From Gammaproteobacteria bacterium UBA6940 (GTDB lineage: Bacteria; Pseudomonadota; Gammaproteobacteria; Pseudomonadales; UBA6940): a stretch of 64,000 nucleotides of DNA. The stretch lies in NCBI GenBank assembly GCA_002450655.1, contig DJZY01000057.1:39128-103127 (forward strand). The letters are read 5' to 3'. The translations under genes were made by a program, and so were the position numbers. Positions 32,631 through 57,009 of this stretch are shown here, one piece after another (the first letter of the stretch is position 1; the number at the start of each line of letters is the position of its first letter). The notes below the pieces were generated by a model. That model saw only the letters and a list, made by a program, of their open reading frames with translations. It was not told where the DNA came from and did no database searches.

Positions 32631-32654
32631 ATATTTAAAGTCTATTTTTTAATT

Positions 32655-36290: not shown

Positions 36291-36298
36291 GTAAACCT

Positions 36299-36880
36299 CT
36301 AGGCATTATCTTTAAGCTGTTTAATATACTGATCTAGCAGCTCAGGTAAATTAATTTTGACTCTAGAGTGACCGGACTCAAGAAAAACATTACCATCACT
36401 TAATTTATTATTAAGCTGAACTCGCCAACCACTTTCATCCATATGATTCGCTAATGCATTTTGCACTACTTCACTATTATGTTGATTAACATGAATAACA
36501 ATTTGATGATCTGTCGGCAGTAATTGCTGTACGGACTCATCAACTAAATATTCTAACAATGCTTGATCTTGACTCACTTGGTGATGCAAGAATGTTGCAC
36601 AGATATCAGTAGCCAAGGTTTTCAGTTCGGAAACAAGATCCTGACGGTAATCTTGAAAAGGGTGTTGCATGGCTTGAATGAGCTGACGAATTTTCGTCAT
36701 TTCAATATCCATTTTTTGAGTAAGTTCAGCCTGCCCTTCTGCTAGACCAGCAGCATAACCTTCAGCCTTACCTTCTTTAAAGCCATCATCATAACCTGCC
36801 TCACGAGCATCAGCCATTTCTGCAACTGTAACTCCAGCATCCTTTGCTGGTGATCGAAACCCGGCACGACTTTCTGTCAT
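36299..36880 (-). CDS. fliH: Flagellar assembly protein FliH
   Basis: 193 aa. 'AGYDDGFKEGKAEGYAAGLAEGQAE' is a FliH-type repeat. Position is between fliG and fliI. Confidence 0.8.
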   Translation of the reverse strand: MTESRAGFRSPAKDAGVTVAEMADAREAGYDDGFKEGKAEGYAAGLAEGQAELTQKMDIEMTKIRQLIQAMQHPFQDYRQDLVSELKTLATDICATFLHHQVSQDQALLEYLVDESVQQLLPTDHQIVIHVNQHNSEVVQNALANHMDESGWRVQLNNKLSDGNVFLESGHSRVKINLPELLDQYIKQLKDNA

Positions 36881-36881
36881 A

Positions 36882-37898: not shown

Positions 37899-37956
37899 AT
37901 TGTGTCCCTAAAAACAAGTGGGTCAAACCTTGACCCTACAAAATAAACTTTTCCAA

Positions 37957-39606
37957 TTAACCAGCGTTAAGCCAGCTCTTCACAACCTGCGCTACCCTGC
38001 GTGGATCATCAGCAACCATACCTTTAATTGCATTTAATTGAGACTCATAACTTTGATCTGGCCCAGGCAATAGTGACTCAGGACCACCTGTGAGGGTAAT
38101 TTCATCCAACTCAGGCTCTGGCGCTAACTCCATTTCATCAGGCAGTTCAAAGCTATTTTCACCCTCGGCAACAGACGCCAAACGGCTTAGAAGCGGCTTC
38201 AAGAAACCAAACACAAGGATAAACACTAAAAGAATACCTAATGCTCTTATAGCAAAGTCTCGTACACCTTGCTGCTCCCATAAAGGTACTTCTGGAATTT
38301 CAACAAGATCATCTTCAAGTCGAACAAATGGCTGATTCATCACATTAACACTGTCACCACGGCTTGCATCATAGCCAACAGCATCTCGTACAAGAGCAGT
38401 TATACGCGCAAGCTCTGCTTCTGGTATTGGTTCATATGTCACTGTTTGTTCTTCACCTGTGCCAGTAATCACACGACGATCATCGATAACAACTGCAACG
38501 GTTAAGCGTTCTAAGCGTCCAACCTGATGGCGGGTATGACTGACCGTACGATCAAGTTCAAAGTTTTTTGCAGCCTGTTTACGCTCGTTAATCGCTTTTG
38601 CTGTACCACCTTCGACAGCATCATTTGTCGCCTGTTCTGGTGCAACACCACCACCTGGAGGCGTATTTGCAAGAGCACCAGGCACACCCATGGCGCCTGA
38701 GCCCTGCATCATATTTTCTTCAACAATACGTTCGCTTCGTAATGCATTAACATCTGGGTTAAATCGCTCTTCTGCTTGCTCAACCACTGTGAAATCGACA
38801 TCTGCAGATACTTGGGCGCGGAAATTATCATTACCAACGATAGGTAAAAGAATATCGTCTAAACGTTGCTGGATTTTCTTTTCCAAGCTCATTGTGTAAT
38901 CAAGTTGACGAGCTGCTCGAACAAAGTCTTCGTTTTCTTGATCGTCAGATAACAACATACCTTTGTTATCAACTACAGAAACATGCTTCGCCTGCATTTC
39001 GGGGATACTGGAACTGACTAATTGCTGTATAGCAACAACCTGATTTGGTTCTAATTTACGACCAGGATAAAGCTCGACCATAACAGAGGCCGAAGGATTA
39101 CGTTGCTGGTCTATAAAAACAGCAGGTTTCGGGATTGCTAAATGCACACGTGCACCACGAATGGCAGACATACTTGCAATCGTTTTAGAAAGCTCACCCT
39201 CTAAGGAGCGATGGTATCTGGCTTTTTCCATAAATTGGCTTGTGCCAAATTGTTGCTGTTTATCAAGCAACTCATAACCATTGGTATCACCAAGGGAATA
39301 ACCAGCTCTCGCTAATTCAAGTCGTGCATCATGTATACGATCCGACTCTACCATGATCACACCATTATTAGTGTCAACTTTAAATTTGATTTCTTGCTGC
39401 GATAAAATATCAACAATTTGACTCGCATCAGCATTACTCACATTGGCCTGTAATGGGCGATATGTTGGTTCTTGCGACCAAAGAACAACACCAAAGCCTA
39501 AAGCAACACTCGCTGCTAGGCCAATCATGATACCGATCTGACGAAGAATCGAAAGGTTACTTAAACCTTCCATTACTGCATTGCTTCCAGAATATTCAGC
39601 TGCCAT
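37957..39606 (-). CDS. fliF: Flagellar MS-ring protein FliF
   Basis: 549 aa with N- and C-terminal TM segments and YscJ/FliF-type periplasmic domains. Position is fliE-fliF-fliG. Confidence 0.95.
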   Translation of the reverse strand: MAAEYSGSNAVMEGLSNLSILRQIGIMIGLAASVALGFGVVLWSQEPTYRPLQANVSNADASQIVDILSQQEIKFKVDTNNGVIMVESDRIHDARLELARAGYSLGDTNGYELLDKQQQFGTSQFMEKARYHRSLEGELSKTIASMSAIRGARVHLAIPKPAVFIDQQRNPSASVMVELYPGRKLEPNQVVAIQQLVSSSIPEMQAKHVSVVDNKGMLLSDDQENEDFVRAARQLDYTMSLEKKIQQRLDDILLPIVGNDNFRAQVSADVDFTVVEQAEERFNPDVNALRSERIVEENMMQGSGAMGVPGALANTPPGGGVAPEQATNDAVEGGTAKAINERKQAAKNFELDRTVSHTRHQVGRLERLTVAVVIDDRRVITGTGEEQTVTYEPIPEAELARITALVRDAVGYDASRGDSVNVMNQPFVRLEDDLVEIPEVPLWEQQGVRDFAIRALGILLVFILVFGFLKPLLSRLASVAEGENSFELPDEMELAPEPELDEITLTGGPESLLPGPDQSYESQLNAIKGMVADDPRRVAQVVKSWLNAG

Positions 39607-39677
39607 GGGTATTCCTTCTTTATCGCACTACTTTCAACATGAGCTCTATATTTAATTTGCTAACTTAATGCTCGGCA

Positions 39678-40025
39678 TTAAACTGGCATATTCATAATTT
39701 CTTTATACGCATCAACTAGTTTATTTCTCACATTTAACATAGCCTCAAAACCTATTGAAGCTTGTTGAGATGCAATTGTGACTTGCTCTAAAGTGACACC
39801 AGGGTCACCTAACTCAAATCGAGTTTTTAAATCAGCACTTTCCATTTGTGCATCACTGACTGATTTTATTGCGTTTTGAAAAGTTGACTGAAATGAGTCT
39901 TCATCCGTATTATCAACATTGAATTGACCAACACTCGAATCCATGTCATCGAAGCCAGCACGAATCTGGCGGATATTATTTAAAATGCTTTGAACCGATG
40001 CCGTGTCGCCGCCGATAGATTGCAT
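39678..40025 (-). CDS. fliE: Flagellar hook-basal body complex protein FliE
   Basis: 115 aa. C-terminal 'VRNKLVDAYKEIMNMPV' is the conserved FliE ending. Confidence 0.85.
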   Translation of the reverse strand: MQSIGGDTASVQSILNNIRQIRAGFDDMDSSVGQFNVDNTDEDSFQSTFQNAIKSVSDAQMESADLKTRFELGDPGVTLEQVTIASQQASIGFEAMLNVRNKLVDAYKEIMNMPV

Positions 40026-40065
40026 AACAATACCCTCTTATTCCTTTATTTCATGATCCACTTGA

Positions 40066-41595
40066 TTAAATTTCACCAAGTGCTGGCCAACATTCTTTAA
40101 TTTTTGCAATTTTATATCGCAATGTACGTGGACTAATACCGAGCATTTCTGCTGTCTTTTTACGGCTGCCATTATTTTTTTGCAGGCATTCCACGATTGT
40201 TCTCAATTCTTTTGTTCTTAAATCTTCACCCTGCATGTCACCAGCAAACAAAACCTGCTGGGCATCTAAAGTGTCAAAATTATGTGACTGATCTTGCAAG
40301 CTGTCTTTGTTACTCTGCTCAGCCGTCGTCAAAGTTTTGCCACTTAAAGGTTTTTCTTCTTTAATTTCAAGCACTTTACACTTTGACTGATCAGCATCTG
40401 TCACTTCAATATATGTACTTGCATTTTTAATGCCAGAATCAGTCATATCAATTAGAAGATCAGCGGCAGTAATTTGATCATTTTGCACAAGCACCAATGC
40501 TCGCTGCATGACATTATCAAGCTCACGAACATTTCCAGGCCAGTTATAAGACATTAATTTATCTTTAGCTTCTTGCGTTAGAATTGGACGAACTGTTTTA
40601 CTGGATACATGTCGATTTAAAAAAGTTTCAGCTAAAGGAATAATGTCATCACGTCTTTCACGAAGCGGTTTCCATTGCAATGGAAATACATTAATTCTGT
40701 AATACAAATCTTCTCTAAAGTTTTTTGCTGCAACTTCTTCAGCAATATTTCTGTTCGTTGTCGCAACCACACGTACATCAATTGCAATAGGCTCTTTACT
40801 TCCAATTCGTTCAACTTCTTTTTCTTGAAGCGCACGAAGAATTTTGGCCTGCAGACTTAAAGGCATTTCAGTAATTTCATCAAGTAAAAGAGTGCCGCCA
40901 TCAGCTAATTCAAACTTACCTGGCATGGCTTTATGAGCACCAGTAAATGAGCCTTTTTCATGCCCAAATAAAATAGCTTCAAGCATATTTTCAGGGATTG
41001 CAGCACAATTAATTGCTACAAAGTTTCGGGAGTGCCTTGGAGAACTGTCATGAATATACCGTGCCAATACTTCTTTTCCAGTACCACTCTCACCAGAAAT
41101 AAGAACATTGGCATTGGATTGGGCTACTTTAGCCGCCATAGCAAAAACTGCTTTGCTTTCATTACTGACCATGACAGGCTGATCAGCCTGATAATCTTCA
41201 GCAAGTGTTTGCGTATATTGCTTCACTTTTGCTGTTAATTGAGAGAGGGAAAAAGGCTTGGCAAGGTAATCAACCGCCCCACGTTGTATTGCTTTAACAG
41301 CACGGTCAACACTTGAATATGCTGTCATTAACATGACAGGCAGGTATGGATATTCTTGACGTATTTGTACCAGTAATTCTTCCCCACTCATATTCGGCAT
41401 ATTAATGTCGGAAATAACCATATGAACACTTTCTGACTTTAATTGAATCAAGGCTTCTTCAGCAGAGTTAGCACAAATCACATCTACTCGCTCAAGCTCC
41501 AAGGATTCACGTATCGCTGTTTGTAGGGACTTATCATCTTCAACTATTAATACTTTTAATGCCGCATTTTGTGTTTGATTTGAAATAAACGTCAT
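40066..41595 (-). CDS. fleR: Sigma-54-dependent flagellar response regulator (FleR/FlrC)
   Basis: 509 aa. REC 'MVISDINMPNMSG', AAA+ 'GESGTGKE', 'GSFTGA' (GAFTGA loop), 'ATN', C-terminal HTH 'KKTAEMLGISPRTLRYKI'. Confidence 0.9.
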   Translation of the reverse strand: MTFISNQTQNAALKVLIVEDDKSLQTAIRESLELERVDVICANSAEEALIQLKSESVHMVISDINMPNMSGEELLVQIRQEYPYLPVMLMTAYSSVDRAVKAIQRGAVDYLAKPFSLSQLTAKVKQYTQTLAEDYQADQPVMVSNESKAVFAMAAKVAQSNANVLISGESGTGKEVLARYIHDSSPRHSRNFVAINCAAIPENMLEAILFGHEKGSFTGAHKAMPGKFELADGGTLLLDEITEMPLSLQAKILRALQEKEVERIGSKEPIAIDVRVVATTNRNIAEEVAAKNFREDLYYRINVFPLQWKPLRERRDDIIPLAETFLNRHVSSKTVRPILTQEAKDKLMSYNWPGNVRELDNVMQRALVLVQNDQITAADLLIDMTDSGIKNASTYIEVTDADQSKCKVLEIKEEKPLSGKTLTTAEQSNKDSLQDQSHNFDTLDAQQVLFAGDMQGEDLRTKELRTIVECLQKNNGSRKKTAEMLGISPRTLRYKIAKIKECWPALGEI

Positions 41596-41612
41596 GACAT
41601 ATCTCCTACTGC

Positions 41613-42671
41613 TTAAGAATTCATAAATGGCACACTAATAGAAACGCAACTGCCTTGCTTCTGTGGTGATAACAACAAACGACCACCATGCTTATTTGCC
41701 ACTGTTGATGCAAATCTCAGGCCAATACCACTTCCAGATTTTTTTGTTGAAAATGCTTTTTTACCGAAATTATCTTGCGCTTTCTCAGAAAAACCACAGC
41801 CACCGTCAAAAATATCGAAATAAAAAAAACCTCGTCCGGATTGCTGACACTGCATTCGACGAACAGCAATCCGGACAACGGCTCCAGGTTTTGAAGCTTC
41901 ACAGGCATTTGTCACTATATTTGAGAGCGCACCAATAAGTGCATCGTAATGACACTGAATATGTTGAATAGCAATATCTGTATCGCATTGAATAACCGGA
42001 TGCATATTTTTTATTGCACTTTTGCTCATTTGTAATACTGCATTTAAAATATCACCGACAGTTTGGCTTTCCTCTACAGGCAAATCGCCTTTAACGAAAA
42101 ACAGCAAATCATTCACTTGTCGATTCATATAATTCAATTGATTCGCCATCGTATCGCAGACAGTTTTGCGTCTTTGCGCTGGCAATTCATAATGGCGAAG
42201 CTGATCTGCATAAAGCAGACATGTTGATAAAGGCGTACGTAATTGATGGGATAATGTTGCGCTTAGAGCACCTAATTCTCGCAAGCGATCTTCTTGATCA
42301 ACTTGCTGCTGTAAACGTCGTGTTTCCGTCACATCACTTAATAAAATAATTTGCTCAAGTTGTTGTGGGTTTTCCAGGCTTGGTACAGCTTGTGTTGAAA
42401 CATCTAGCCTACGTCCATTTTTAACAAGCACCTCAAAACCAGGTTTACTTTGCGGAACAACGCATGCATTAATAACATCGCGCCATAACTGGCCAATCAT
42501 CTGCCCTTCAAAACCTAAGAACACTTTTGAAAGTTGATTTTGTTTTTTAATCTGTCCTTTTTGATCTAACCAAATTAACCCTAAAGGTAATGATTCAAGA
42601 AACTGCGTAAAATACGCTTGAAACTGATTAAAACTGGCTGATTCATTCCAATATTGCGCCGCTGTTGACAT
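41613..42671 (-). CDS. fleS: Flagellar sensor histidine kinase (FleS/FlrB), cytoplasmic PAS-HisKA-HATPase
   Basis: 352 aa with no TM segment. H-box 'LSHQLRTPLS', N-box 'NIVTNACEAS', G-boxes 'DGGCGF' and 'GSGIGL'. GGAG RBS 5 nt upstream. Confidence 0.85.
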   Translation of the reverse strand: MSTAAQYWNESASFNQFQAYFTQFLESLPLGLIWLDQKGQIKKQNQLSKVFLGFEGQMIGQLWRDVINACVVPQSKPGFEVLVKNGRRLDVSTQAVPSLENPQQLEQIILLSDVTETRRLQQQVDQEDRLRELGALSATLSHQLRTPLSTCLLYADQLRHYELPAQRRKTVCDTMANQLNYMNRQVNDLLFFVKGDLPVEESQTVGDILNAVLQMSKSAIKNMHPVIQCDTDIAIQHIQCHYDALIGALSNIVTNACEASKPGAVVRIAVRRMQCQQSGRGFFYFDIFDGGCGFSEKAQDNFGKKAFSTKKSGSGIGLRFASTVANKHGGRLLLSPQKQGSCVSISVPFMNS

Positions 42672-44490: not shown

Positions 44491-45603
44491 TTATTCAGCA
44501 GTCTCTTGTGTTTGCTCTTGTGCACGTGGTTGTTGTGCTTGCTCTGGGTCTAACTGACGAGTTGCAGTTACAAGAGTTGCTGCACGTCTGTTACGACTAC
44601 GACCTTCTTCAGTTTCATTCGTTGCAATTGGCTTTTCCTCACCATAACCAACGATTTCAAGACGATCTTTTTGAATTTCAAAATCACGTACTAGAATATC
44701 ACGAATTGCTTTTGCACGTTTTTCAGAAAGCTTCTGGTTGAAAGCTGATGGACCTGTTGAGTCAGCATGCCCTTCAATTGTTACGATACTGTCTTTGTAA
44801 AGTTTCAAGAAAGTCGCCAGTTCTTTAACATCAGAATAGAATTCTGGCGGCAGGTTTGAACTTTCAAATGCAAAGTTCACGTTAAGATCCATTGAAACTG
44901 TATTTTCGATAGGAATTGCACAACCGCGCTCATCAACCATTAGGCCAGCAGCTGTATCAAGACACTCATCAATATTATCAAGAATGCCATCACCATCTGC
45001 GTCAGCAATCATCTCGCCTTGCGCTGCACCAGCATCTACAAGATCAATATCACCTTCACTTGAATTCTCATTGCCGCCGAACGTCATTGTTAATGCAAGA
45101 CTAGCAAGAGTATCTGTGTAATCACCTTCAAAGTTATCAATTGCTCTGAAGTCACCACGAACTGAGAAGTCTTCGTTGAAGAAGTAACGAACACCAGCAC
45201 CAACGTTAGCAATAGTGTCATCTAAATGAATATTTTTTTCTTCTTGATCAAGGTTGATCATACCAAAACCTGCTGAAAGGAAAGGCTGTAGTTTTCTTTC
45301 AGGCATAAAATAATAGTGACCATCTAGGCGATACTGTTCAACATCATACTTTGCAAGTGAATTGATTTTCTCATGTGTTTCACCATTCATGTATTGCACT
45401 TCAGCTGCAAGATTTTGAGTAAAACGGTATTCAAAACCAATAGCAGGTATTGTTTTATCTTTGATAATAAGGTCTTTATCAAAGTTGTAATAACCAGCAC
45501 CTGGGTTAATAGATAAACCTTCGCCATAAGTTTCTGCCTGTGCAGTAGCAGCGCCAAAAAGGCTTAGTGCAACAATTGCAGATGTTAAACCTGTTAGTTT
45601 CAT
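44491..45603 (-). CDS. OmpA-family outer membrane protein (N-terminal beta-barrel, TSP3-type Ca-binding repeat, OmpA_C peptidoglycan-binding domain)
   Basis: 370 aa. Signal peptide 'SLFGAATAQA|E', 'DADGDGILDNIDECLDT', 'VTIEGHADSTGPSAFNQKLSEKRAKAIRDIL'. Confidence 0.9.
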   Translation of the reverse strand: MKLTGLTSAIVALSLFGAATAQAETYGEGLSINPGAGYYNFDKDLIIKDKTIPAIGFEYRFTQNLAAEVQYMNGETHEKINSLAKYDVEQYRLDGHYYFMPERKLQPFLSAGFGMINLDQEEKNIHLDDTIANVGAGVRYFFNEDFSVRGDFRAIDNFEGDYTDTLASLALTMTFGGNENSSEGDIDLVDAGAAQGEMIADADGDGILDNIDECLDTAAGLMVDERGCAIPIENTVSMDLNVNFAFESSNLPPEFYSDVKELATFLKLYKDSIVTIEGHADSTGPSAFNQKLSEKRAKAIRDILVRDFEIQKDRLEIVGYGEEKPIATNETEEGRSRNRRAATLVTATRQLDPEQAQQPRAQEQTQETAE

Positions 45604-45806
45604 AGATAATCCTCTCGTAGATTACAGGTATGGTGTGATCTTGTTGTTTTCTATGGGTTAAGTCTTGCGTTAAATACAGCCAACAAAGAATCAAACCCTA
45701 CTTATGTGTGGTTACCGCAAGCTAGATCACGTATAAGTCCTAAACCCACCACATCATACACATTTTAATTTATAAGTATATTTTTAGACAAAATAGACCA
45801 TGTTCA

Positions 45807-45915
45807 AAAATAATCCACAATTTTTGTGGATAAACCTGTGAAAAACATTAGCTATTTCACCTAAAAGCCCCATAGATTGGAAACCTCAAAAGATTGATCA
45901 ATTTTTAACCAACCT
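45807..45915. repeat. Copy A of a ~110-bp repeated non-coding module with a palindromic DnaA-box pair
   Basis: 'TAATCCACAAtttTTGTGGATAAacctgtg'. TGTGGATAA (45825-45833) is the exact complement of the DnaA-box consensus TTATCCACA, and TAATCCACA (45811-45819) matches it 8/9. Downstream blocks 'cacctaaaagcccca' and 'tttttaacc' are shared with copy B. Confidence 0.7.
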
Positions 45916-46192
45916 AACTATAGGCCTGATGCAGACACTTTACGGCTTATTTTATGAACGCAAAGTGAAAAGGCACAAAGCCCATAAAATTAATAACTTA
46001 GACCGTTCACACAACTTAGACACGAATTTGTACTTTTTTTATAAGTCAGTCAGAAAAAAAATATATTGTGATTATTCTGTCCTTAAAATGTTTATTCACA
46101 ACTCATATCTTGCAAAAAATTCACATCAAGCTATTATTTCAAATAGTTATAGAACAACCTTTCAAAAATTGCTTTTGCGCTATTAAAATACA

Positions 46193-46305
46193 AATAATAT
46201 CCACAATTTGTGTGGATAAACCTGTGCGTTACTCTAAAAAGCACCTCCAAAACCCCCATTAAATCGGCACATCTTAAAATTGGTTATTTTTTAACCGCTT
46301 TATAT
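46193..46305. repeat. Copy B of the repeated module with a palindromic DnaA-box pair
   Basis: 'ATATCCACAatttgTGTGGATAAacctgtg'. TGTGGATAA (46211-46219) is exact and ATATCCACA (46197-46205) is 8/9. Followed by 'cacctccaaaaccccca' and 'tttttaacc', as in copy A. Confidence 0.7.
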
Positions 46306-46718
46306 CTTGACCAGATACATTTTGAAAAAAAAATCTTTGACAATTATGTAGATTCACCGTGTCATTTAGTATTGAATGTGTCAGAATCCCTTGGACTGTT
46401 TTTCAGCTATACATATTGTGCTTATTTGCTTGAAAGCGTCAGTTCCAGACATGTCTCTGCGTTTACGCTTTGTAGCTTGTGAATCCCTTAGTGTATGCGC
46501 TGGTTAAATATTCAACTTGCCGGAACTTTAATAGTGTTACCGAACTCTGATAAACTTGTCAGAATTTTTGACACCCCCATTTAGAACCTATCTACCCCAC
46601 TTCTAATTACTGATAGAAAGTTGGTTGGATATCTATAGTTTTTGACGAGAGAAACACCATGGCTCATTGCTTCGCAAGGCAAAGACACGATAATAAGACA
46701 AACAAAAGTGCCCTTTTC

Positions 46719-47513
46719 ATGAATCGAATTTTTACTTTTTCCATTACACTTTTCGCTCTAATCTCGACAGCTGCACAGTCAGCAGAGCCAACCTACCCAG
46801 ATGATCAAAAGCAAATTGTGGGTACAGCAGCCTCTATATCTGAAGAGACTCAATCAGTTTGGGTCTCCGGCCCTCTTATAGATGTTTATGCAGGCCCGGG
46901 TCAAAGCTACCCTATTGTTCACACTTTAGAAAAAGGTGAGAAACTTGAGCTTCATAAACAATACACACGCTGGATTAAAGTCACATCTCAAAGTGGTATT
47001 GACGGCTGGATTGCAGCAACAGACACAGCTAAGCTTTTTGATGCAAATGGAAGACCGCTCACTGAACGTAAGCCAATCAACGATCATGCTGGTCGTTTTT
47101 CATTACAGCTTGCATTAGGTACATTTGATGGGGATAGCTACGGATCAATGGGCATCGGCTATGGCCTTTCAGAAAACCTCAGAATTGATGGCATCCTAGG
47201 TCATTCAACTGATGGTCCACTTCAAGGTCGCCATCTCTATGGCGCTCTAACCTTAGATTTAAAACAATTCAAATTTGTTGCAGAAAAACCATGGCAACCT
47301 TACGCAAGCTTGGGCTACGGTGTCTATAACGCTGATGGTAATATAAATGGTATTAAAAACTTCGATACGTTCAAATCATCTATTGGTGTGAGATATAACT
47401 TCTTTCAAGAGATTGAAGCAACATTCGAATACAGTCGAGATGTAATTTTAGTAACAGGCAACAATAATATTCATGCAGACGGCCTTAAAGTCGGCGTAAT
47501 GACATATTTCTAA
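46719..47513 (+). CDS. Secreted SH3b-domain protein fused to a small OM beta-barrel-like domain
   Basis: Signal peptide 'MNRIFTFSITLFALISTAAQSA|EP' (the ORF track starts at 46659). SH3b-like 'IDVYAGPGQSYPIVHTLEKGEKLELHKQYTRWIKVTSQSGIDGWI'. The C-terminal half alternates Gly/aromatic residues and ends in 'GVMTYF'. Confidence 0.65.
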   Translation: MNRIFTFSITLFALISTAAQSAEPTYPDDQKQIVGTAASISEETQSVWVSGPLIDVYAGPGQSYPIVHTLEKGEKLELHKQYTRWIKVTSQSGIDGWIAATDTAKLFDANGRPLTERKPINDHAGRFSLQLALGTFDGDSYGSMGIGYGLSENLRIDGILGHSTDGPLQGRHLYGALTLDLKQFKFVAEKPWQPYASLGYGVYNADGNINGIKNFDTFKSSIGVRYNFFQEIEATFEYSRDVILVTGNNNIHADGLKVGVMTYF

Positions 47514-47674
47514 ACAATTTAAAGTTTACACCCCCATTATCGAATAAATTAAAGCAATGATTCAGGTACATTCACCATAATGCTGCTTGAATCAAGTTGC
47601 CCTATGCTGGCAAACATATAATTGATTTCAAATGCGCATTTGCATTGACGAGAGGCATAACAGTGAGATTGACC

Positions 47675-48325
47675 ATGACAACACAAAAACGAAAGCAGAT
47701 TTTCAACGCATTATTAGGCTCTACAGTGCTACTTACATCTATTCAAGCAACTGCTGCTGAATACCTGCCTAATATTGAAAGACGTGAAGTTGTCACACCT
47801 GGTATTGATACTGAAAATTTTGAAATTAGTACATTTATGAGCCTTCTCAGCGTACAAGACTTTAGCGTTGAGCCTCACTTTAGTGTACGCCTTGCGTATC
47901 ATGCACATGAGAACTGGTTCTTCGAAGGTAGCCTTGGTCAAGCGGATATTGGCGCCTCTGCAATGGAACGTACTTTTAATGGCACAGGTGGTATTTCCAA
48001 CTTAGAAACAGTCAGCGACCGCCGTTACACTGATTACCATTTCAATGTTGGCTGGAACTTTCTCCAAGGCCAAACATCATATCTTGGCAAAAAAAGCATG
48101 ATTAACAGCACTTATTTAACAGCAGGCGCTGGTATTACAAACTTTGCAGATCAAAATAATATGACAATTAACTTTGGTATTGGTCAACGCCTCCTCTTTA
48201 ATGACAATCTGGCTTTCAGAGTTGAAGCGAAAGACTATGTTGTTTCTTATGACAACCCACCTGGCGGTACTAAAAGCAGCCAACATAACCTTTCCATAGG
48301 TGTAGGTCTTGGTCTTTTCTTCTAA
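47675..48325 (+). CDS. Small outer-membrane beta-barrel protein (GltA/GltB-size class)
   Basis: Signal peptide 'LLGSTVLLTSIQATAA|EY' (the ORF track starts at 47597). Alternating beta-strand pattern with the terminal OMP signature 'GVGLGLFF'. Confidence 0.65.
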   Translation: MTTQKRKQIFNALLGSTVLLTSIQATAAEYLPNIERREVVTPGIDTENFEISTFMSLLSVQDFSVEPHFSVRLAYHAHENWFFEGSLGQADIGASAMERTFNGTGGISNLETVSDRRYTDYHFNVGWNFLQGQTSYLGKKSMINSTYLTAGAGITNFADQNNMTINFGIGQRLLFNDNLAFRVEAKDYVVSYDNPPGGTKSSQHNLSIGVGLGLFF

Positions 48326-48373
48326 AGCAAGAAAAGAAACCAAGTCAAAATAAGATTAAGGAAACCATACCCT

Positions 48374-50182
48374 ATGCTTACACTTAAAAAACTAGCACTG
48401 GCCAGTAGCTGCCTTCTTGCCGCACAACTGTGTTCTACACAGGCAGTTGCTGCTAATGCAGATTCTACATATCAGCTTATGCAACAAAGTTACCTCAAGC
48501 TTGATGTTGTTGATGCAGCTTATGGTTCAGCAAAAGACTTCTCTGAATACGTTGGTGCACCGCTGGTTATTTACTTTTGGAATGATCTTTGCGACCTTTG
48601 CTTACAAGATATTGAAACACTCAATGATTTCGCAAAAGAGAACCACCTCAAAGCAGTTGCTATCCGTTTAGGAGGTCAAAAAAACACAGCATTTGGTCCT
48701 AAAACACAGTCTGAAATTCGTCTGCAACAACGTCTAGCTGGATTTGATCAAATTGATCATCTCTATGCTCCGTACTTAAAGAAAAACCAGCTTGAGCTAC
48801 AAAAGTTACCAGCTATTCAAGTTTTAAACTCATCAGGTAAAACTGCTGCTGTCTACCCTGCATTCAAAGGGCAGTGGTCTGAAATTGCGACCCTTGTAGA
48901 ACAACTCGATACTCTTGCATTCCAAGATTACAGCATTCAACAAAAGCCTGAATTAATTGAAACGCAGAATAAATATGAGAACCCGCTTAAGTTAAAACGT
49001 ATTTCAGAAGAAACCCTTGATCGAGATGATGAGCAACCATTATTTCTCACTCAAACTTTTTTTGCTGATTCATCGCAGAAGCGTAACGCTCTCAATCACG
49101 ATGGCATGCCTGCAAGTCATGATCTTGGCCTAACAGCTGCTGGTTCATTTGTGAACTATAACTTTCAAACTGGTGCAAAATCATCATCAAATTGGCAGGG
49201 CTTGCAATTTGCATATGTCCACCCTCTCAGTATTGATGAGCGTTTGGCTTTTTATAGCCAATTTGCAACCGCAAGTGGTTATGAAACTCAAAGTGTAGCA
49301 GCAGAGATAGACTCTCCAGAAAATAATATTCTAGGTATCAACTACGAAACTTACCTCAGCACAACTCGTGTTGCAGTTGGTCTATACCAAGAAACTCAAT
49401 CTTACAGAACTGACACTGGTTTAAAGTTTGATTTTGCATCCATGTTTTGGAAAGACAGAACCAAAATCACAGTAGGTATGGACTTATTTAGCGCTACACA
49501 CGAAGAAGCAAGCACTATTACTGCCGCTGATGATGATACAAACCGTCGTCACCGTGTTGGAATATCTCACCGCATTGATGAAAAGCGCCGTCTTGTTTTT
49601 AACTGGTATCACGACGCCCTTCAAGGCGTTATTGAAAATCCAGATGAGATGGTCGACTACAGATTTAACGGCGGTAGTACTCTAGCTCAGCAATATGCTT
49701 TATACCCTGCAACAAAAACACAAAACAACTATGTTTTACAGCTTGTAGAGTCTAAAGAAAAATACGATATCGCTTACGGCTATGGTGCATATGACGACTC
49801 TTGGGGTACTGAGCAACATCGCTTGTTCACAAGCATCAATACCCAAGTTAACCAGTGGCAACTTCAAGGGACTGCTCGTCTAACACATCAGCATAGAGCT
49901 GTTATGTTCAATGATCTGTATCCTATGGCAAATGCTGAAACCCTTATGTCTCGTAACCCTGATTTAGCTGGCTTTGATAGTTTAGGCGTTGGCGTTAAAG
50001 GTGTTTATCCCGTGCAGTGGTCACTTTGGCAGAAACCTACATTTGTAACCCTTGGCGCTGATCTTGATTATTATGATTTTGAAACATTATCAGACAACAC
50101 AAAAAGCACAAATGTGAATGAGAGAGAAGCACTGCAAGAGCTTATTATCAGCACATCTATTGGCTTAGAAATTAAACTTTAA
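48374..50182 (+). CDS. Secreted thioredoxin-like (CxxC) domain fused to a large predicted beta-barrel
   Basis: 602 aa. Signal peptide 'LLAAQLCSTQAVA|AN'. 'PLVIYFWNDLCDLCLQD' is a redoxin-type WxxxCxxC context. The C-terminal ~400 aa are rich in alternating Y/F/W/G strands. Confidence 0.6.
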   Translation: MLTLKKLALASSCLLAAQLCSTQAVAANADSTYQLMQQSYLKLDVVDAAYGSAKDFSEYVGAPLVIYFWNDLCDLCLQDIETLNDFAKENHLKAVAIRLGGQKNTAFGPKTQSEIRLQQRLAGFDQIDHLYAPYLKKNQLELQKLPAIQVLNSSGKTAAVYPAFKGQWSEIATLVEQLDTLAFQDYSIQQKPELIETQNKYENPLKLKRISEETLDRDDEQPLFLTQTFFADSSQKRNALNHDGMPASHDLGLTAAGSFVNYNFQTGAKSSSNWQGLQFAYVHPLSIDERLAFYSQFATASGYETQSVAAEIDSPENNILGINYETYLSTTRVAVGLYQETQSYRTDTGLKFDFASMFWKDRTKITVGMDLFSATHEEASTITAADDDTNRRHRVGISHRIDEKRRLVFNWYHDALQGVIENPDEMVDYRFNGGSTLAQQYALYPATKTQNNYVLQLVESKEKYDIAYGYGAYDDSWGTEQHRLFTSINTQVNQWQLQGTARLTHQHRAVMFNDLYPMANAETLMSRNPDLAGFDSLGVGVKGVYPVQWSLWQKPTFVTLGADLDYYDFETLSDNTKSTNVNEREALQELIISTSIGLEIKL

Positions 50183-50274
50183 TTCTTTAAAAATAAATTT
50201 AATAACGGTCTTACAAGCTTAAGCAACACAAGCATAAGACCTTTAAGGTTATCCAAATTAGTAAGGAACACCAC

Positions 50275-50853
50275 ATGAAATTAAGCGTAAAACTACGTCA
50301 CTTTCTTCAAATTTCAAGCCTTGGTCTTTGTCTGTGTGGCATGGGCCCAGTTTCAGCAGAGCCTCTAAAACAAAAAGGTGATGCTGCTAATGGTTCTTCA
50401 TTTGCAAGTGCTTCCTTAGAAGAAATCGAGCAACTTAAAACAGATATTATTGAGCTTAATGCCGAGTTCAAACAGCTTGAACAAGATCAACTCTATCCTG
50501 CATCAGTAGATACAGCTTTATTTGTTTCTGTTGATACTGGACAGTATTTCCAACTTGAAGCGATTGAAGCTCGTGTTGATGACCAGCCTGTTATTGGTCA
50601 CTTCTACACAGACAAACAACGTGGTGCTCTTGAAAAAGGCGGCATTCACAAACTATCACAGATTCATGTTAAGCCAGGTCAACACCAGCTTGTTATTACG
50701 GTCATTGGTAAAACACCAGATGGTCAATCTATTAAGCGTGGCATAACCCATGACTTTGAAAAAACAAAAGACTCTCTAGGTCTTGAGCTTCAGCTTTTTG
50801 ATAGCCTTAAGAGCCTATCAATGGAAATGCGCATTAAAACTTGGTCCCTCTAA
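50275..50853 (+). CDS. Secreted protein of unknown function (coiled-coil plus beta domain)
   Basis: 192 aa. Signal peptide 'LGLCLCGMGPVSA|EP' (possible lipobox at 'LCLCG'). Confidence 0.55.
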   Translation: MKLSVKLRHFLQISSLGLCLCGMGPVSAEPLKQKGDAANGSSFASASLEEIEQLKTDIIELNAEFKQLEQDQLYPASVDTALFVSVDTGQYFQLEAIEARVDDQPVIGHFYTDKQRGALEKGGIHKLSQIHVKPGQHQLVITVIGKTPDGQSIKRGITHDFEKTKDSLGLELQLFDSLKSLSMEMRIKTWSL

Positions 50854-50901
50854 AGGACATTTAAATCGCTTCCAGATGCAGATTAGATCGAGCAATAAAG
50901 T

Positions 50902-50926
50902 ATAAGAAGTGCAATGCACTTCTTAT
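50902..50926 (+). other. Intra-cluster perfect hairpin
   Basis: 'ataagaagtgc' - aat - 'gcacttcttat' with an 11-bp stem. No U-tract follows. Confidence 0.3.
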
Positions 50927-50951
50927 GATGAATGATAATTTTGGATAAACA

Positions 50952-53126
50952 GTGAAAATGCTCAACATGATGATGAACTCACCTCAATTGGATCCAAAGG
51001 GCGCCAGAGGTCAGAATGAGACTTCGGCTCTGACTCGAATGAAAACAAAAACAATGCAACTTTCGAGGTTAGCCGCTGCTGTAATAGCTCTAACGCCTCT
51101 CATGAGTGCAAGTGTTCATGCAGAACCAAGAATTAGAGCTAACAATGCCGCCTACTTCCAAGATGAAGACTTGGCAAAAGCACAATCTCATAAAGTTGAT
51201 AGCCTTGCCTATGGCGAAGCTATTTATTTAATGCATTCAGATCAGGATCTGAAGGCATTGGTGCGTCTTGCACAAGCAGGCCTTGAACATCAGCTCAGTG
51301 TATATCCAACATTATTACAAGCATCTATTGCTTCAAATCAAGGCTTAAATCAGCACGCAATGCAGGCGCTAGATAAAGTAGCGACTCAAGAAAATACACA
51401 AGATGATTTAAACCGACTCTATTTATTCCAGGCCGAGCTTGCTTATGAGCATAAAGATTTTGACAAACTTGCAGAAAAAATCATGCAAGTACGTCAGCCT
51501 AATGGTTTAGAAGATCCTGATCTTTATTACTACCTACGTATTCAGTCTGCTCTTGAGCGTGATCAAGTTAATAATGCAACAGACATGATGGGCCGCATGG
51601 CTGTTTCACCATGGAAAGCAATTAGTCATACTAATATTGCCCTGTGGTATTACAGACAAGGACAGTTCCAAAATGGGATCGATACTCTTAACCGCGTGTT
51701 AGAAGAGCTTGATACAACATCAACTATGGATGCTTACGAATACTGGTATACAACTGGTCGTCGTGCCTCAACAATTCTTGGCCAAGAAGAGTTTGAACGC
51801 CAAAAGTACGAGCTGCAAATTCTCAGCGAACGTGTCCTCAATTTGATTGGCTTTGGCTATGTTAAATTAATGACAGAACCTGGTGTTAGTGTTGGAAGTC
51901 AAGTCTTTGAAGATTCATTAGAGTCTGCACAGAATGCGATTTTCCAAATTCCGCAAGATAGCATTTATGCAACACAAGGTCTTGAACTCCTTGCCCAAAG
52001 TTTGATGCAAGTCTATGAAGGTCGTGAGTCTAAAGAAATTAAAGACAGCATGATCGTTAATGATGAAAAACTTGAAGCACGCCTAAAAGATGATAAAGCA
52101 AAGCTTAAATCTATTTTGACTCGATTAACACAGCCTACAAACCCTGTTCTGACTCGTTTAAGAAGTCACTTTGCACTCCTTAAGCTTGAAGAAGACAACC
52201 AAGACAAATACCAAGCAGCACAGGCAAAGCTTGTAACAGTGATTGAAAAAGAAATTGCAGAACGAACCGCTGTACTCAATCGATCTGATGATTACTTTAA
52301 TCGTCTTGTTGCGCCTTTTTATAGCCTAGATCAACTTGGTAATGAGTATGGTTTTGACTTAGAATCTTTAACAATTAAAGATTACCCTCTTCACCCTTCT
52401 ACTCTTATTCACTGGTTAAGCCAACCTCAAACTCGTGAATATTTAAAAACACTGCGCTTCTTAAATGAAGGTCTTGCATTCACACAAGAATGGGAAGCTA
52501 AAAAAGTATTATTTAATCTTTATGACGATACTGTATTAGAAAATAAGCGTAGCCTAGCCAAGCTGGAAGCTGCTCGTTCAGAGTATGCAAAACTAGAGAA
52601 AACCTATGCCTCATTAAAAAATCAACTTGAAAATACACATGTTACATCAACAAAAGAAAAAGACATGCTGAAATCAGTTGATTCATCTTTAGAAACGCTG
52701 CAAAACTTAGCGGCACAATCACCTGAAGATGCAAGCGGGACTCAACGCCATATAAATCAACTGCGCTTGTTTAAAGGTCAGCTGATTTGGAAAGCAGAAC
52801 TTGAGCAATCCACTCGTGATGAACAAGCTAAAGTTGCCCTTTCTAAAATTAAGCAAATGATGGCTCAAGTTGAGCGACACATTATCAATATTGAAAACGC
52901 GCCAGCACAAAAACCAATTGACCGTGAAGCTGTACTTAGCTTAGACGATCGAATTAGCAACTTAGATATGCGAGTTGAGCGTGCCCTTTCAAGCAACAAA
53001 ACACTCTTTACCGATTCATTTAAAAATCTAATCGGATACGAACAACAATATCTCCAGGCAGCACTTGTGAAACTCAGACTACAACAAGCTGTCTCTATTC
53101 AGAATTCAGGAGAGCCAAATGAGTAA
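50952..53126 (+). CDS. Periplasmic TPR/coiled-coil protein (GltC-like position)
   Basis: 724-aa ORF. The likely true start is the ATG at 51039 or 51054, giving signal peptide 'MQLSRLAAAVIALTPLMSASVHA|EP'. Helical-repeat N-terminal half and a long coiled-coil C-terminal half. The stop overlaps the next start by 8 nt. Confidence 0.6.
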   Translation: MKMLNMMMNSPQLDPKGARGQNETSALTRMKTKTMQLSRLAAAVIALTPLMSASVHAEPRIRANNAAYFQDEDLAKAQSHKVDSLAYGEAIYLMHSDQDLKALVRLAQAGLEHQLSVYPTLLQASIASNQGLNQHAMQALDKVATQENTQDDLNRLYLFQAELAYEHKDFDKLAEKIMQVRQPNGLEDPDLYYYLRIQSALERDQVNNATDMMGRMAVSPWKAISHTNIALWYYRQGQFQNGIDTLNRVLEELDTTSTMDAYEYWYTTGRRASTILGQEEFERQKYELQILSERVLNLIGFGYVKLMTEPGVSVGSQVFEDSLESAQNAIFQIPQDSIYATQGLELLAQSLMQVYEGRESKEIKDSMIVNDEKLEARLKDDKAKLKSILTRLTQPTNPVLTRLRSHFALLKLEEDNQDKYQAAQAKLVTVIEKEIAERTAVLNRSDDYFNRLVAPFYSLDQLGNEYGFDLESLTIKDYPLHPSTLIHWLSQPQTREYLKTLRFLNEGLAFTQEWEAKKVLFNLYDDTVLENKRSLAKLEAARSEYAKLEKTYASLKNQLENTHVTSTKEKDMLKSVDSSLETLQNLAAQSPEDASGTQRHINQLRLFKGQLIWKAELEQSTRDEQAKVALSKIKQMMAQVERHIINIENAPAQKPIDREAVLSLDDRISNLDMRVERALSSNKTLFTDSFKNLIGYEQQYLQAALVKLRLQQAVSIQNSGEPNE

Positions 53127-55959
53127 TAAAAATATATATGCTCGCATGCTCGCCTTAAGCGCATTTGCTCTTATTACACAAGGCTGTTCAACAGCACCAA
53201 GACATGAGCAAGCCAACTTAGGTGATTGGTATAAAGCACAAGATGAATCTACAGATGCACAAGAAAAAATGCCTGTAGAGGAAACTGAAACAATTGCAGA
53301 AGTCACGCCAGAAAAAAGCAAAACTGAACAAATGCAAACCGAGCTTGATATCTATAAAAATGCATTAAACAGTCTTGATAATAATGAAGCTAATCCTGCT
53401 CTTGTTTCTACGCTAAAAACAAAAATTCTAGCGATGGAAATCAAAAAAGCAGACGAAGCTTACAACGAAGCACCAGATCAAACGCAAGTCTATGAACCTG
53501 TTATTCGTGACCTTAGAGTATGGCTTGAGAAAAACCCTGACCATGCTTTAACGCAAAGCTATAAATATCAACTTGCTCGCTTATTAGATATTACAGGTCA
53601 ATCCACTGCAGCTGAAGAAACATTAACCGAACTTCAGCAAACAGCTTCGACAACATCAAAAAATAGCGAAGTCCAGTTCCGTCTTGCAGAAGCTGCATTC
53701 TCTCAGCGCGACTATGACAAAGCGATTGGACATTATTCAAATGTATTAAAAGATGAATCAAGCAGCTCATCCGACAACCGTAATAAAGCAATTTATATGC
53801 GTGGCTGGAGTTACCTTCAAGTCAATGAATTTAAACTTGCAGCACAAGACTTTCTAACACTTTTAACAAACAGCAATTTCTCTATCGATAATCAGCAAAT
53901 GCTAGATGACACTTATCGTGGCTTTATATTGTCGATTAATGATGCAGGCGGTGTTCAAGAAATTCCAAGCCTCGTTTCTTTAGATGAATTGCAACCTATT
54001 GCAATGAATTTATATAAACAGCTTATTGAATTCTACACATCTGAAGAGCGCTGGAGTGAAGTTATCATGGCTTATCAAGCGTTTCAGGATCATTACCCTG
54101 AATCGCCACAAGCAATTGAAATGGAACTCGAACTTTTATCTTTCCTCGAAAAGAAAAAGCAAAAAGCCTCATTACGTGAAGAAAAAGCCAACTTTATTGA
54201 GCGTTATGCTGATCGTGCACCTGAAAAAACAGCAATCTTTACTTTAGAGCTAGCTGAATACAACAGAGCTGAAGCACTTGAGTATCGTAAAGCTGAAGAT
54301 AAAAAACAGCGTGACCTTGCGGATAAATCTTTTGCTAAAAGTTTAGAGTATTATGAATTTTTCCTCGAAAAGTTTGCTGATAGACCAGAGTTTGCTGTTA
54401 TTAAATTTAACTATGCAGAAACACAACTTGAAGCTGGATTTATTGAAGAAGCTCGTAAAACCCTTGCAAGCTTAGACACGCCTGCAATACCAGAAGCAAC
54501 ACGTGAGAAAGCAGCTTATCTATCCATCACTACACTGAACGACATGATTCAAGCAATGTCTTCAAACTCTATGGATGTAGCAAAACTTGAAGAAGAAAAG
54601 TATTTACTGGCTGAAAACTTTGTTAAAAATCACCCTCAGCATGCTAAAGCAAGTTCTATTTTAAGCTGGCTTATGATTGAAAGCTTCAAGCAAGATAACT
54701 TTAAAGATGCTTTAGAGTTTACTGCTATTGCTCAGCAACAGTTCCCTGCTCTTGAATACCAAGCAACGCAAATTCGAGCGGATATCTTGTTCGCTCAAGA
54801 AAACTGGAATGAAGCAGCTCAAACTTATGAAGCTTTATTAGTGATGACACCTGTAAATGCAGAAGATGCAGCGAAGCCTGAGCAAAAGACAATATGGCGT
54901 GATAACGCACTTAAAGCTTATTATCAAGCAGCTCGCCAAGAACAAAATCCTCAAGCAGCTATTGCGCTTTACGCTCAAGTTTTCGATGGTGCTCGCAATC
55001 ATGAGTTAGCACCTGCAGCACTTTATGAGGCAGCGATTCTTGCTTCAACACAGGAAGACCCAGTTTATAAAGATAAGTCTATTGAGTTGCTCAAGCGCTA
55101 CATTGCTCAATACAAAGCTGGCGAACAATTACGTGACGCGAAGATCAAGCTTGCCGAAATATATGTTAAAGAAGAGAACTGGGCTCTTGCAGCACCACTT
55201 ATGCAATCTGTGGCAGGCCAAATTGATGATCCTAGCTTGAAAAGAACAGCTGTTCTTGAGGTGGCTGACCTTTACCGTAAAGGCGGTAATGCAACTCGTG
55301 CAATTAAGGCCTATAGCTCATTTATAACAAGTGCTGACGCAACAACGCCATACCAGGATATCAGCAAAGCACGCATGGCTTTAATTGAACTCTATTACGA
55401 TAATGGTCAAAAAACACAGGCTTACAAAGAAATGAACACCTTTGTAAACCAAGATCTTAATGCAGCTGAAGCGACTAAAGAAACCCGTAATGCTGCACTT
55501 GAGTACGCTATTTTACTTGCAAATAGACAAGCGAAAGCTTACAGACGCATTCGTCTCACAGGAAATCTGCAAGCAAGCTTCCAGCGCAAACAAGCAGAGC
55601 TGGAAAAAGCAATTGATGCCTACAAGCGTCTTGAGCGTTTCGAAGGTGAAAGAGCCAAACAAACTGTTAATGCTGGTATAGGTGATTTATTTGCACACTT
55701 AAGTCAATCATTACTAAATGCACCAATACCATCACAGCTCTCTGAATTAGAGCAAGAAGAATACATGATGATCATTGAAGAACAGGCATTTCCTTTCGAG
55801 GAAAAAGCCCTTGCATCTCATGAAAAGAATGTTTCAGAGCTTCATAACGGCCAGTGGTCACAAGCAATCCAAGACAGCTTGAGCACTCTGCGTCAATTAA
55901 TGCCTGCACGTTTTGACAAGCAAGAACAGTTTGAAGGAGCAATTACTCATGTTGAATAA
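53119..55959 (+). CDS. Large TPR-repeat lipoprotein (GltD/AgmU-like)
   Basis: 946 aa. 'LSAFALITQGCST' is a lipoprotein-type signal. Numerous TPR-like helical repeats follow (for example 'AIYMRGWSYLQVNEFKLAAQDF', 'ALYEAAILAS'). Confidence 0.65.
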   Translation: MSNKNIYARMLALSAFALITQGCSTAPRHEQANLGDWYKAQDESTDAQEKMPVEETETIAEVTPEKSKTEQMQTELDIYKNALNSLDNNEANPALVSTLKTKILAMEIKKADEAYNEAPDQTQVYEPVIRDLRVWLEKNPDHALTQSYKYQLARLLDITGQSTAAEETLTELQQTASTTSKNSEVQFRLAEAAFSQRDYDKAIGHYSNVLKDESSSSSDNRNKAIYMRGWSYLQVNEFKLAAQDFLTLLTNSNFSIDNQQMLDDTYRGFILSINDAGGVQEIPSLVSLDELQPIAMNLYKQLIEFYTSEERWSEVIMAYQAFQDHYPESPQAIEMELELLSFLEKKKQKASLREEKANFIERYADRAPEKTAIFTLELAEYNRAEALEYRKAEDKKQRDLADKSFAKSLEYYEFFLEKFADRPEFAVIKFNYAETQLEAGFIEEARKTLASLDTPAIPEATREKAAYLSITTLNDMIQAMSSNSMDVAKLEEEKYLLAENFVKNHPQHAKASSILSWLMIESFKQDNFKDALEFTAIAQQQFPALEYQATQIRADILFAQENWNEAAQTYEALLVMTPVNAEDAAKPEQKTIWRDNALKAYYQAARQEQNPQAAIALYAQVFDGARNHELAPAALYEAAILASTQEDPVYKDKSIELLKRYIAQYKAGEQLRDAKIKLAEIYVKEENWALAAPLMQSVAGQIDDPSLKRTAVLEVADLYRKGGNATRAIKAYSSFITSADATTPYQDISKARMALIELYYDNGQKTQAYKEMNTFVNQDLNAAEATKETRNAALEYAILLANRQAKAYRRIRLTGNLQASFQRKQAELEKAIDAYKRLERFEGERAKQTVNAGIGDLFAHLSQSLLNAPIPSQLSELEQEEYMMIIEEQAFPFEEKALASHEKNVSELHNGQWSQAIQDSLSTLRQLMPARFDKQEQFEGAITHVE

Positions 55960-56905: not shown

Positions 56906-56931
56906 TATTTTAAACATGCTGAAACAATGAT

Positions 56932-56961: not shown

Positions 56962-57009
56962 CAGAGGCGAAAGTATATTTAGTCACCAAGACACCGTACG
57001 AGAAAATTT

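Follow-up and report, generated by a model that had tools for sequence, protein, structure and literature searches.

The stretch of DNA considered here, a window of 64,000 nucleotides from contig DJZY01000057.1 of Gammaproteobacteria bacterium UBA6940, contains between positions 45604 and 46658 an intergenic region that probably holds neither genes nor an origin of replication but a tandem pair of sites of the DARS (DnaA-reactivating sequence) type. The region is the longest in the window without an open reading frame (ORF) of at least 100 amino acids (1055 nucleotides [nt], against 556 nt for the runner-up), and its GC content is 33.6%, compared with 40.4% window-wide. Three small ORFs within it, of 85, 90, and 64 amino acids, were considered as genes and rejected; at loci other than the near-identical strain loci L001 to L005 they gave no significant tblastn match (best E value, 0.26), and they are therefore treated as noncoding. 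According to the ORF list, genes lie on the minus strand from 9.2 to 42.7 kb and from 43.7 to 45.6 kb, with a single plus-strand ORF between them at 43.0 to 43.7 kb, and on the plus strand from 46.7 to 60.3 kb; the genes in the first 9 kb of the window are also on the plus strand. The OmpA protein encoded on the left flank occurs as well in the metagenome-assembled genome (MAG) GCA_002721025.1 and in Tara and other ocean samples, and the lineage is that of an uncultured marine gammaproteobacterium. The flanking genes and the features of the region are as follows, the DnaA boxes being predictions and distances marked with a plus sign being counted from box I of the module concerned.

44491..45603, minus strand, OmpA/OprF-family outer-membrane protein gene (left flank), reading away from the modules; Pfam OmpA 6e-24, OprF 2.5e-10
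45810..45922, plus strand, module A, a DARS-type unit (core and Fis-consensus site), one copy of the repeat; family profile E=5e-10
45811..45819, plus strand, module A predicted DnaA box I, TAATCCACA; 8/9 to TTATCCACA, inverted with respect to box II
45825..45833, minus strand, module A predicted DnaA box II, TGTGGATAA; perfect consensus (9/9), 5 bp past box I
45837..45845, minus strand, module A predicted DnaA box III, TGTGAAAAA; 8/9 to TGTGNATAA with N allowed, 3 bp past box II
45896..45910, no strand assigned, module A perfect Fis consensus, GATCAATTTTTAACC (consensus GNNYAWWWWWTRNNC); at +85
45945..45959, no strand assigned, a further perfect Fis consensus, GCTTATTTTATGAAC; at +134 from module A box I
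46092..46100, plus strand, lone DnaA box TTATTCACA, fitting TTATNCACA, between modules A and B
46198..46303, plus strand, module B, a DARS-type unit (core and Fis-consensus site); family profile E=1.1e-8
46197..46205, plus strand, module B predicted DnaA box I, ATATCCACA; 8/9
46211..46219, minus strand, module B predicted DnaA box II, TGTGGATAA; perfect
46223..46231, minus strand, module B predicted DnaA box III, TGTGCGTTA; 7/9 to TGTGNATAA
46282..46296, no strand assigned, module B perfect Fis consensus, GGTTATTTTTTAACC; at +85
46659..47513, plus strand, gene for an SH3-domain and outer-membrane beta-barrel protein (right flank), heading the plus-strand cluster; Pfam SH3_3 5.5e-10

The two modules share a 36-nt repeat core (45805-45840 and 46191-46226), detected by a repeat finder with 89% identity and an offset of 386 bp, beyond which weaker conserved blocks reach about 110 nt in a pairwise alignment of the copies. 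The 28-nt core pattern ATCCACAATTTNTGTGGATAAACCTGTG occurs only twice in the 64 kb, both times within the intergenic region, and was found in none of 100 shuffled sequences. Each copy is laid out as an inverted box I, 5 bp, a box II on the opposite strand, 3 bp (ACC), and a box III oriented as box II, so that copy A reads TAATCCACA-5-TGTGGATAA-3-TGTGAAAAA and copy B reads ATATCCACA-5-TGTGGATAA-3-TGTGCGTTA. Box I takes the form [T/A][A/T]ATCCACA, matching the consensus at 8 of 9 positions, and the spacer between boxes I and II, ATTTT in one copy and ATTTG in the other, is 5 bp in both. Perfect matches to the Fis consensus number six in the whole window, and three of these are inside the intergenic region. 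The perfect IHF consensus WATCAANNNNTTR is absent from the region; an IHF-like site with one mismatch (CAAAAGATTGATC) is present at +76 of module A, where it overlaps the Fis consensus, and copy B lacks even a one-mismatch site at +76. An initial annotation, made from the letters and the ORF list, had already recorded the length of the ORF-free stretch, the two imperfect direct repeats of about 110 bp, the additional box at 46092-46100, and the switch in gene orientation, which the ORF list bears out with the exception noted above on the left, and its quoted sequences for the inverted DnaA-box pairs with their N5 spacers proved exact. It went unnoticed there that the conserved ACCTGTG comprises the 3-bp spacer and the start of a third DnaA box, that the conserved TTTTTAACC is the end of the perfect Fis consensus at +85, and that the whole matches the layout of a DARS core.

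That layout is found at both DARS of E. coli K-12, whose boxes were located in the retrieved sequences: DARS1 reads TTATCCACT-attcc-TGTGGATAA-cca-TGTGTATTA and DARS2 reads TTATTCACC-ttttc-TGTGGATAG-agt-TGTGAAGAA. The order of the boxes, their orientations, and the 5-bp and 3-bp spacings are identical in the window copies, DARS1, and DARS2. A DARS core is described as boxes I and II opposed at a distance of 5 bp with a box III beside them, box II of DARS1 having the full consensus (PMC6868365, PMC5742627), and ADP is released when the DnaA molecules bound to boxes I and II meet head to head (PMC6868365, PMC5742627). Both window copies have the opposed boxes, the 5-bp space, the full-consensus box II, and an adjacent box III in the same orientation. 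With DARS2 they share in addition a match to the Fis consensus at a fixed distance, +85 in both copies as against +145 in E. coli.

The module is retained in four related uncultured genomes, whose loci were retrieved by homology of the OmpA protein and not by the motif. It occupies the same intergenic region between the SH3-domain gene and ompA, in the same orientation, in relatives with 55 to 71% OmpA identity, L006 having two copies and L007, L300, and L303 a single one; no module was found at L008, where a 54% OmpA homologue has a different upstream neighbor, or at L305, where a 46% homologue stands in another context. The perfect Fis consensus GNNYAWWWWWTRNNC is located at exactly +85 in window copies A and B, in the first copy of L006 (L006A), and in L300 and L303, and L007 has it at the same position with one mismatch. 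In an alignment that takes in E. coli DARS1 besides the window and these relatives, the box I core ATCCAC and the whole of box II are invariant, the 5-bp spacer is fixed in length and variable in sequence (L006, L007, L300, and L303 included), and no gap is needed between box III and the Fis site, largely diverged as that stretch is. Variation between strains is compatible with this pattern: in two related strains, no single-nucleotide polymorphism (SNP) falls in box I, box II, or the Fis sites and one falls in the 5-bp spacer, while the two that do lie in DnaA boxes are both on a degenerate N position, namely, a T>C change in strain L004 that turns the lone box at 46092-46100 into TTATCCACA and a C>A change at 46227 in box III of module B. 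Strain variation thus lends weak support to the DARS reading.

Beyond these relatives the core belongs to a much wider family. When one genome per species was scanned for exact matches to the pattern ATCCACA-N5-TGTGGATAA-N3-TGTG, at least 120 loci were obtained, compared with about 1 expected by chance, as estimated from the length of the pattern and the size of the collection. Among the matches listed, the loci are almost all from Beta- and Gammaproteobacteria, including Pseudomonas, Legionella, Xanthomonadales, Woeseiaceae, Nitrosomonas, Rhodocyclaceae, and Oxalobacteraceae, and each of the at least 120 genomes has either a single site or a tandem pair. The positions that the pattern leaves free obey the DnaA-box consensus, since box I starts with TT (73% and 84% at the two positions) and box III continues G-A-T-A/G-A. 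Downstream of the core, and with one mismatch allowed, 60 of 114 family sites have the Fis consensus at +84 to +87, 62 have the IHF consensus WATCAANNNNTTR at +118 to +122, and about 55 have a distal DnaA box, oriented as box II, at +191 or +202 to +206. A less biased scan, in which metagenomes were searched for the bare inverted pair TTATCCACA-N5-TGTGGATAA, reveals the same asymmetric, extended element. TGTG follows after 3 bp in 77 of 120 pairs (on one side only in 75 and on both in 2), where about 1% would be expected by chance, and at the 67 of the 75 one-sided sites with at least 215 nt of sequence on the TGTG side, that side has a Fis site at +83 to +88 in 39, an IHF site at +116 to +123 in 35, and a distal DnaA box in 43. 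On the side opposite TGTG the corresponding counts are 1, 0, and 1 of 72. The other 43 of the 120 perfect inverted pairs with a 5-bp spacer (metagenome loci L133 to L252) have no TGTG three bases after either box and hence form a second class of inverted pairs, without box III.

A profile of the family, built from 119 genome sites of which none came from the window lineage and none from E. coli, recovers the window modules (E values of 5e-10 for module A and 1e-8 for module B), the relatives (6e-12 for L007, 1.6e-9 for L006, 2.8e-10 for L300, and 8e-8 for L303), and E. coli DARS1 (1e-7), with DARS2 matched weakly (0.07). A profile of the downstream region of the family alone gave marginal matches (E values of 0.17 to 0.2) at the expected places. 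Tandem pairs of complete DARS-type units are also present at L042 (cores 781 bp apart), L048 (435 bp), L094 (375 bp), and L114 (1332 bp), which represent one Duganella genome and three MAGs, two of them labeled as Pseudomonadota only; each of these copies carries an IHF consensus near +119 and, at +179 to +203, a distal TGTGNATAA box that in most cases reads TGTGCATAA. Duplication in tandem has thus also happened elsewhere, independently of its occurrence in the window lineage. What the sequences establish is the boxes themselves with their orientations and spacings, the fixed position of the Fis consensus, and conservation across lineages.

Two further blocks are repeated in the window. The sequence CACCT(A/C)(A/C)AAA(G/C)CCCCAT is common to both modules (45862-45877 and 46244-46260), lies between box III and the Fis consensus, and is faintly echoed in the family logo, which is A rich at +44/45 and +53 to +55 and C rich at +50/51 and +57 to +60. 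A 14-nt repeat, ATATTGTG(A/C)TTATT, is found at 46063-46076 and 46413-46426, 252 and 216 nt past the respective cores; it holds a weak DnaA-box-like sequence, TGTGNTTAT, and might be a degenerate counterpart of the distal box of the family. The core pattern was also encountered in viral contigs of IMG/VR, with 46 exact matches (L254 to L299) that fall into a few recurring sequence groups, examples being L259 64-91, L265 3209-3236, and L255 1574-1601. Among the viral cores with enough downstream sequence, a Fis site was found in 5 of 45, an IHF site in 2 of 45, and a distal box in 3 of 45, and the host neighbor genes were found in none; these sites resemble bare cores of the DARS type carried by phage- or plasmid-like elements, for which the DARS of ColE1 offers a comparison.

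The genes that accompany the family, identified by reading representative protein sequences at loci of 8 kb, differ between lineages. Among the matches listed, to which all of these neighbor results refer, the most frequent are priA, in divergent orientation (23 loci), xseA (17 loci), and a hemW-like radical-SAM gene (14 loci), with smaller groups next to gltA, exbB, and, in Pseudomonas, a DUF1232 gene; dnaA was found in none of the 8-kb loci. The element thus appears to be autonomous and not the operator of one particular gene. Orthology with DARS1 or DARS2 through the neighbors uvrB, bioD, mutH, rppH, and ptsP was considered and rejected, the one case being the Rodentibacter locus L076, from a single Pasteurellaceae genome, with uvrB adjacent. 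A preference for divergent intergenic regions was likewise set aside: the genes flanking 99 family loci are divergent in 35, codirectional in 48, and convergent in 16, and these counts are not decisive.

We suggest that modules A and B act on DnaA in the manner of the E. coli sites, and the mechanism that we propose is borrowed from DARS1 and DARS2. By this analogy ADP-DnaA would occupy the perfect box II and a second DnaA molecule would be recruited to the inverted box I 5 bp away, bringing the AAA+ domains of the two into head-to-head contact, while a third would be recruited head to tail onto box III, 3 bp off. The head-to-head pair would then let go of its ADP, and the nucleotide-free DnaA would dissociate and rebind ATP, restoring initiation-competent ATP-DnaA. 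Binding of DnaA and of Fis, release of ADP, and an effect on the timing of initiation are accordingly what we infer from the parallel with E. coli. The phased Fis consensus at +85 suggests that the nucleoid protein Fis may adjust the activity to growth rate, which is its role at E. coli DARS2.

Several observations weigh against a DARS function for the two modules. In both copies the first two bases of box I depart from the consensus, and in copy B box III matches at only 7 of 9 positions. The window copies are without the IHF site and the distal DnaA box that are found in about half of the wider family, and they are also without the IHF site that at DARS2 is essential and situated between core and Fis site. 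The order of accessory sites at DARS2 is core, IHF (+93 to +121), and Fis (+145), whereas in the wider family Fis precedes IHF; the boxes of DARS2 are more degenerate than those of the window, and, as seen above, the family profile assigns it an E value of no better than 0.07. There is no fis or dnaA gene in the 64-kb window. Finally, only 2 of the 52 box pairs that are arranged similarly in E. coli proved to be active DARS (PMC5835720), a proportion that also favors the principal rival, namely, that the modules are DnaA-dependent operators or titration sites only, at which DnaA regulates the divergent ompA and SH3/outer-membrane promoters or is soaked up with no exchange of nucleotide. Both E. 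coli DARS are themselves situated in DnaA-regulated promoter regions, uvrB P3 and mutH (PMC5835720), and in the window box I of module A adjoins a promoter-like site (45785-45814) that matches the consensus at 10 of 12 positions. We nevertheless regard this explanation as unlikely, if worth keeping in mind, for the module is accompanied by unrelated neighbor genes across lineages, the OmpA homologue of L008 has no module upstream, the one-sided and fixed phasing of Fis, IHF, and distal box over some 215 bp exceeds what a simple operator needs, and the exact 5-bp and 3-bp spacings are those that DARS activity requires.

The remaining explanations fare considerably worse. The two copies could be small-RNA genes of about 110 nt on the minus strand, with the box palindrome serving as a Rho-independent terminator hairpin followed by a U-run; terminator-like sites were indeed called on that strand at both palindromes, and the minus-strand folds are moderately stable (z = -3.1 and -2.4). 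This is very improbable: Rfam 15 gave no match at the gathering threshold in the window or at an E value of up to 1 in 45500-46760, which leaves the promoters for two small RNAs envisaged by the initial annotation with nothing to point to; the folds are not conserved, copies A and B have different predicted middle hairpins, the arms of the hairpins do not vary and so show no covariation, and two palindromic protein-site consensuses account for much of the fold energy. DARS1 and DARS2, moreover, break the palindrome yet keep the box layout, and box I of the wider family is preceded by T-rich sequence, so that on the minus strand the hairpin would be followed by a run of A rather than of U. An origin of replication (oriC), whether chromosomal or secondary, is another of the earlier proposals and would fit a cluster of DnaA boxes in an AT-rich, 1-kb intergenic region at a switch in gene orientation, and Fis-type sites are found in oriC too; we consider it the least probable of all the explanations weighed here. 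The cumulative GC skew falls monotonically across the window, the skew being negative throughout, at about -0.13 on the left with its minus-strand genes, about -0.05 on the right with its plus-strand genes, and negative also in the first 9 kb, where genes are on the plus strand, so that a constant replication bias combined with a coding-strand effect explains it and no switch of replichore is needed. With no change of sign, no dnaA in the window or in the 8-kb family loci, and three GATC sites in the region, a number equal to the window average and no sign of clustering, the region is not to be taken for an origin; the family, for its part, lies beside priA, xseA, hemW, and similar genes and not at the usual dnaA, rpmH, and gidA positions. 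No DNA-unwinding element was apparent on reading the sequence of the region, a reading made without a dedicated repeat search. A dispersed repeat of the repetitive extragenic palindrome (REP) or miniature inverted-repeat transposable element (MITE) kind, or the site of some unrelated regulator that recognizes a palindrome, would account for a repeated module with a palindrome and for the conserved and otherwise unexplained block CACCTNAAAGCCCC between core and Fis site. Against this pair of alternatives stand the presence of only two copies in the 64-kb window, both in one intergenic region, the single locus or tandem pair in each of at least 120 other genomes, and the way in which the unconstrained positions of boxes I and III follow the DnaA-box consensus; we give it very little credence. 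A PhoB/OmpR-type direct repeat (TGTG...TGTG) was examined as a specific candidate and dismissed, for it has a period of 12 in place of 11 and a box III that conforms to the DnaA consensus. The initial annotation had proposed an operator through which an unrelated regulator controls the neighboring cluster, and the presence of the same module beside unrelated genes in other lineages speaks against this. Of its suggestion of a datA/DARS-like locus, the DARS half is supported, the box order, orientation, and spacings being those of DARS1 and DARS2, and the datA half is not, for the layout differs and there is no IHF consensus.

The genes farther from the modules deserve brief comment. On the left, a flagellar gene cluster occupies the minus strand of 25245-42671; its products are a sensor kinase and sigma-54 activator of the FlrB/FlrC kind, FliF, FliG, FliI, FliK, FliM, and FliP, together with a protein with an MCP-signaling domain and one that joins response-regulator receiver, SpoIIE phosphatase, and HATPase-like domains. 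The plus-strand cluster at 46659-60292, labeled "Glt-like" in the initial annotation, is a Ton/Tol-like energized outer-membrane system: it encodes the SH3-domain outer-membrane barrel protein, a second barrel protein, two TPR proteins of 946 and 330 amino acids, ExbB/MotA, two ExbD proteins, and a TonB-C-like protein, in addition to proteins of 602, 192, and 724 amino acids without an assignment. Beyond it, a 471-amino-acid protein encoded at 60396-61811 on the minus strand has a eukaryote-type protein-tyrosine phosphatase domain (Pfam Y_phosphatase, 1.5e-15), which is unusual in a free-living marine gammaproteobacterium.

Reactivation of DnaA by DARS has been studied almost exclusively in E. 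coli. Conservation of the sites has been reported for eight species close to E. coli, from the Enterobacterales, Vibrio, Shewanella, and Aeromonas (PMC4245941 supplement), and for V. cholerae (PMC6090056), and a paper of 2025 still speaks of DARS in "E. coli-related bacteria" (PMC11724364). A literature search for DARS-like elements in other groups found none; the founding DARS paper was outside the reach of that search, and an earlier notice is possible. DARS itself is thus known, and the window adds an uncultured marine lineage with a candidate tandem pair. Judged by the sequences gathered here, the DARS-type site appears to be far more widespread than reported, with a core and strictly phased Fis, IHF, and DnaA-box sites in at least 120 beta- and gammaproteobacterial genomes and many metagenome contigs, and this family-wide picture is a more interesting by-product than the element of the window, whose longest noncoding stretch would be explained without recourse to an origin or a new RNA. 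Should the sites prove active, proteobacteria in general would control the timing of replication by nucleotide exchange on DnaA, and the natural variants (tandem or single, with or without IHF, Fis and IHF in either order) would constitute a ready set of mutants for defining the roles of the accessory sites. We put forward tentatively, as a possibility with slightly less than an even chance of being correct in all its parts, that DARS is an ancient composite of about 215 bp, made up of core, Fis site, IHF site, and distal DnaA box in fixed phasing, that most Beta- and Gammaproteobacteria keep as one locus or one tandem pair and that hops between unrelated intergenic regions; the window would then contain a trimmed version, core and Fis site in tandem, that supplies all of the DnaA reactivation of its genome, and the bare cores on phage-like contigs would serve to manipulate the DnaA of the host.

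Comparison with known DnaA-box systems sets these modules apart from some and close to others. Gammaproteobacterial oriC has the same DnaA-box consensus and IHF and Fis sites as the window and the wider family; it is characterized by arrays of boxes, an AT-rich unwinding element, clusters of GATC, and a switch in GC skew, none of which was seen in the window region. datA, like the window region, is noncoding and has its DnaA boxes clustered away from oriC, and it affects which nucleotide DnaA carries, as the window region is proposed to do. Its effect, however, is the opposite of that of DARS, as a locus of DnaA-ATP hydrolysis that inactivates DnaA, and in E. coli datA the boxes are about 65 bp apart, an IHF site is essential, and the inverted pair has a 3-bp spacer, where that of the window pair is 5 bp. 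The DARS of plasmid ColE1 spans 70 bp and has three DnaA boxes, two of which need the correct orientation (PMC5835720); it is plasmid borne, whereas a search of the plasmid collection with the window module gave no match. DARS2, in the rppH/ygdT-mutH intergenic region, has the same core layout as the window modules, and its activity depends on phased IHF and Fis sites whose spacing to the core matters (PMC4245941). The window has the Fis consensus at +85 and no good IHF site, as against the IHF site between core and Fis site at DARS2.

The other chromosomal counterpart in E. coli is DARS1. This site, between bioD and uvrB, is a single copy at uvrB, as opposed to a tandem pair at ompA, it is without a perfect Fis consensus at +85, unlike the window copies, and its activity has been demonstrated experimentally, whereas the window element is a predicted site. 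At the same E. coli locus (L131 1486-1545) the downstream profile of the family aligns weakly, with an E value of 0.03, to GATTGACTGCAATTTAACCAAT, which precedes the DARS1 core by about 115 bp, and what is left of the accessory part may be present there in rearranged form. DARS1 nonetheless has three boxes in the same layout as the window modules and the same perfect box II, TGTGGATAA, it is noncoding and situated upstream of a gene, as they are, and its 35-nt core is identical to that of module A at 26 of 35 positions by hand count.

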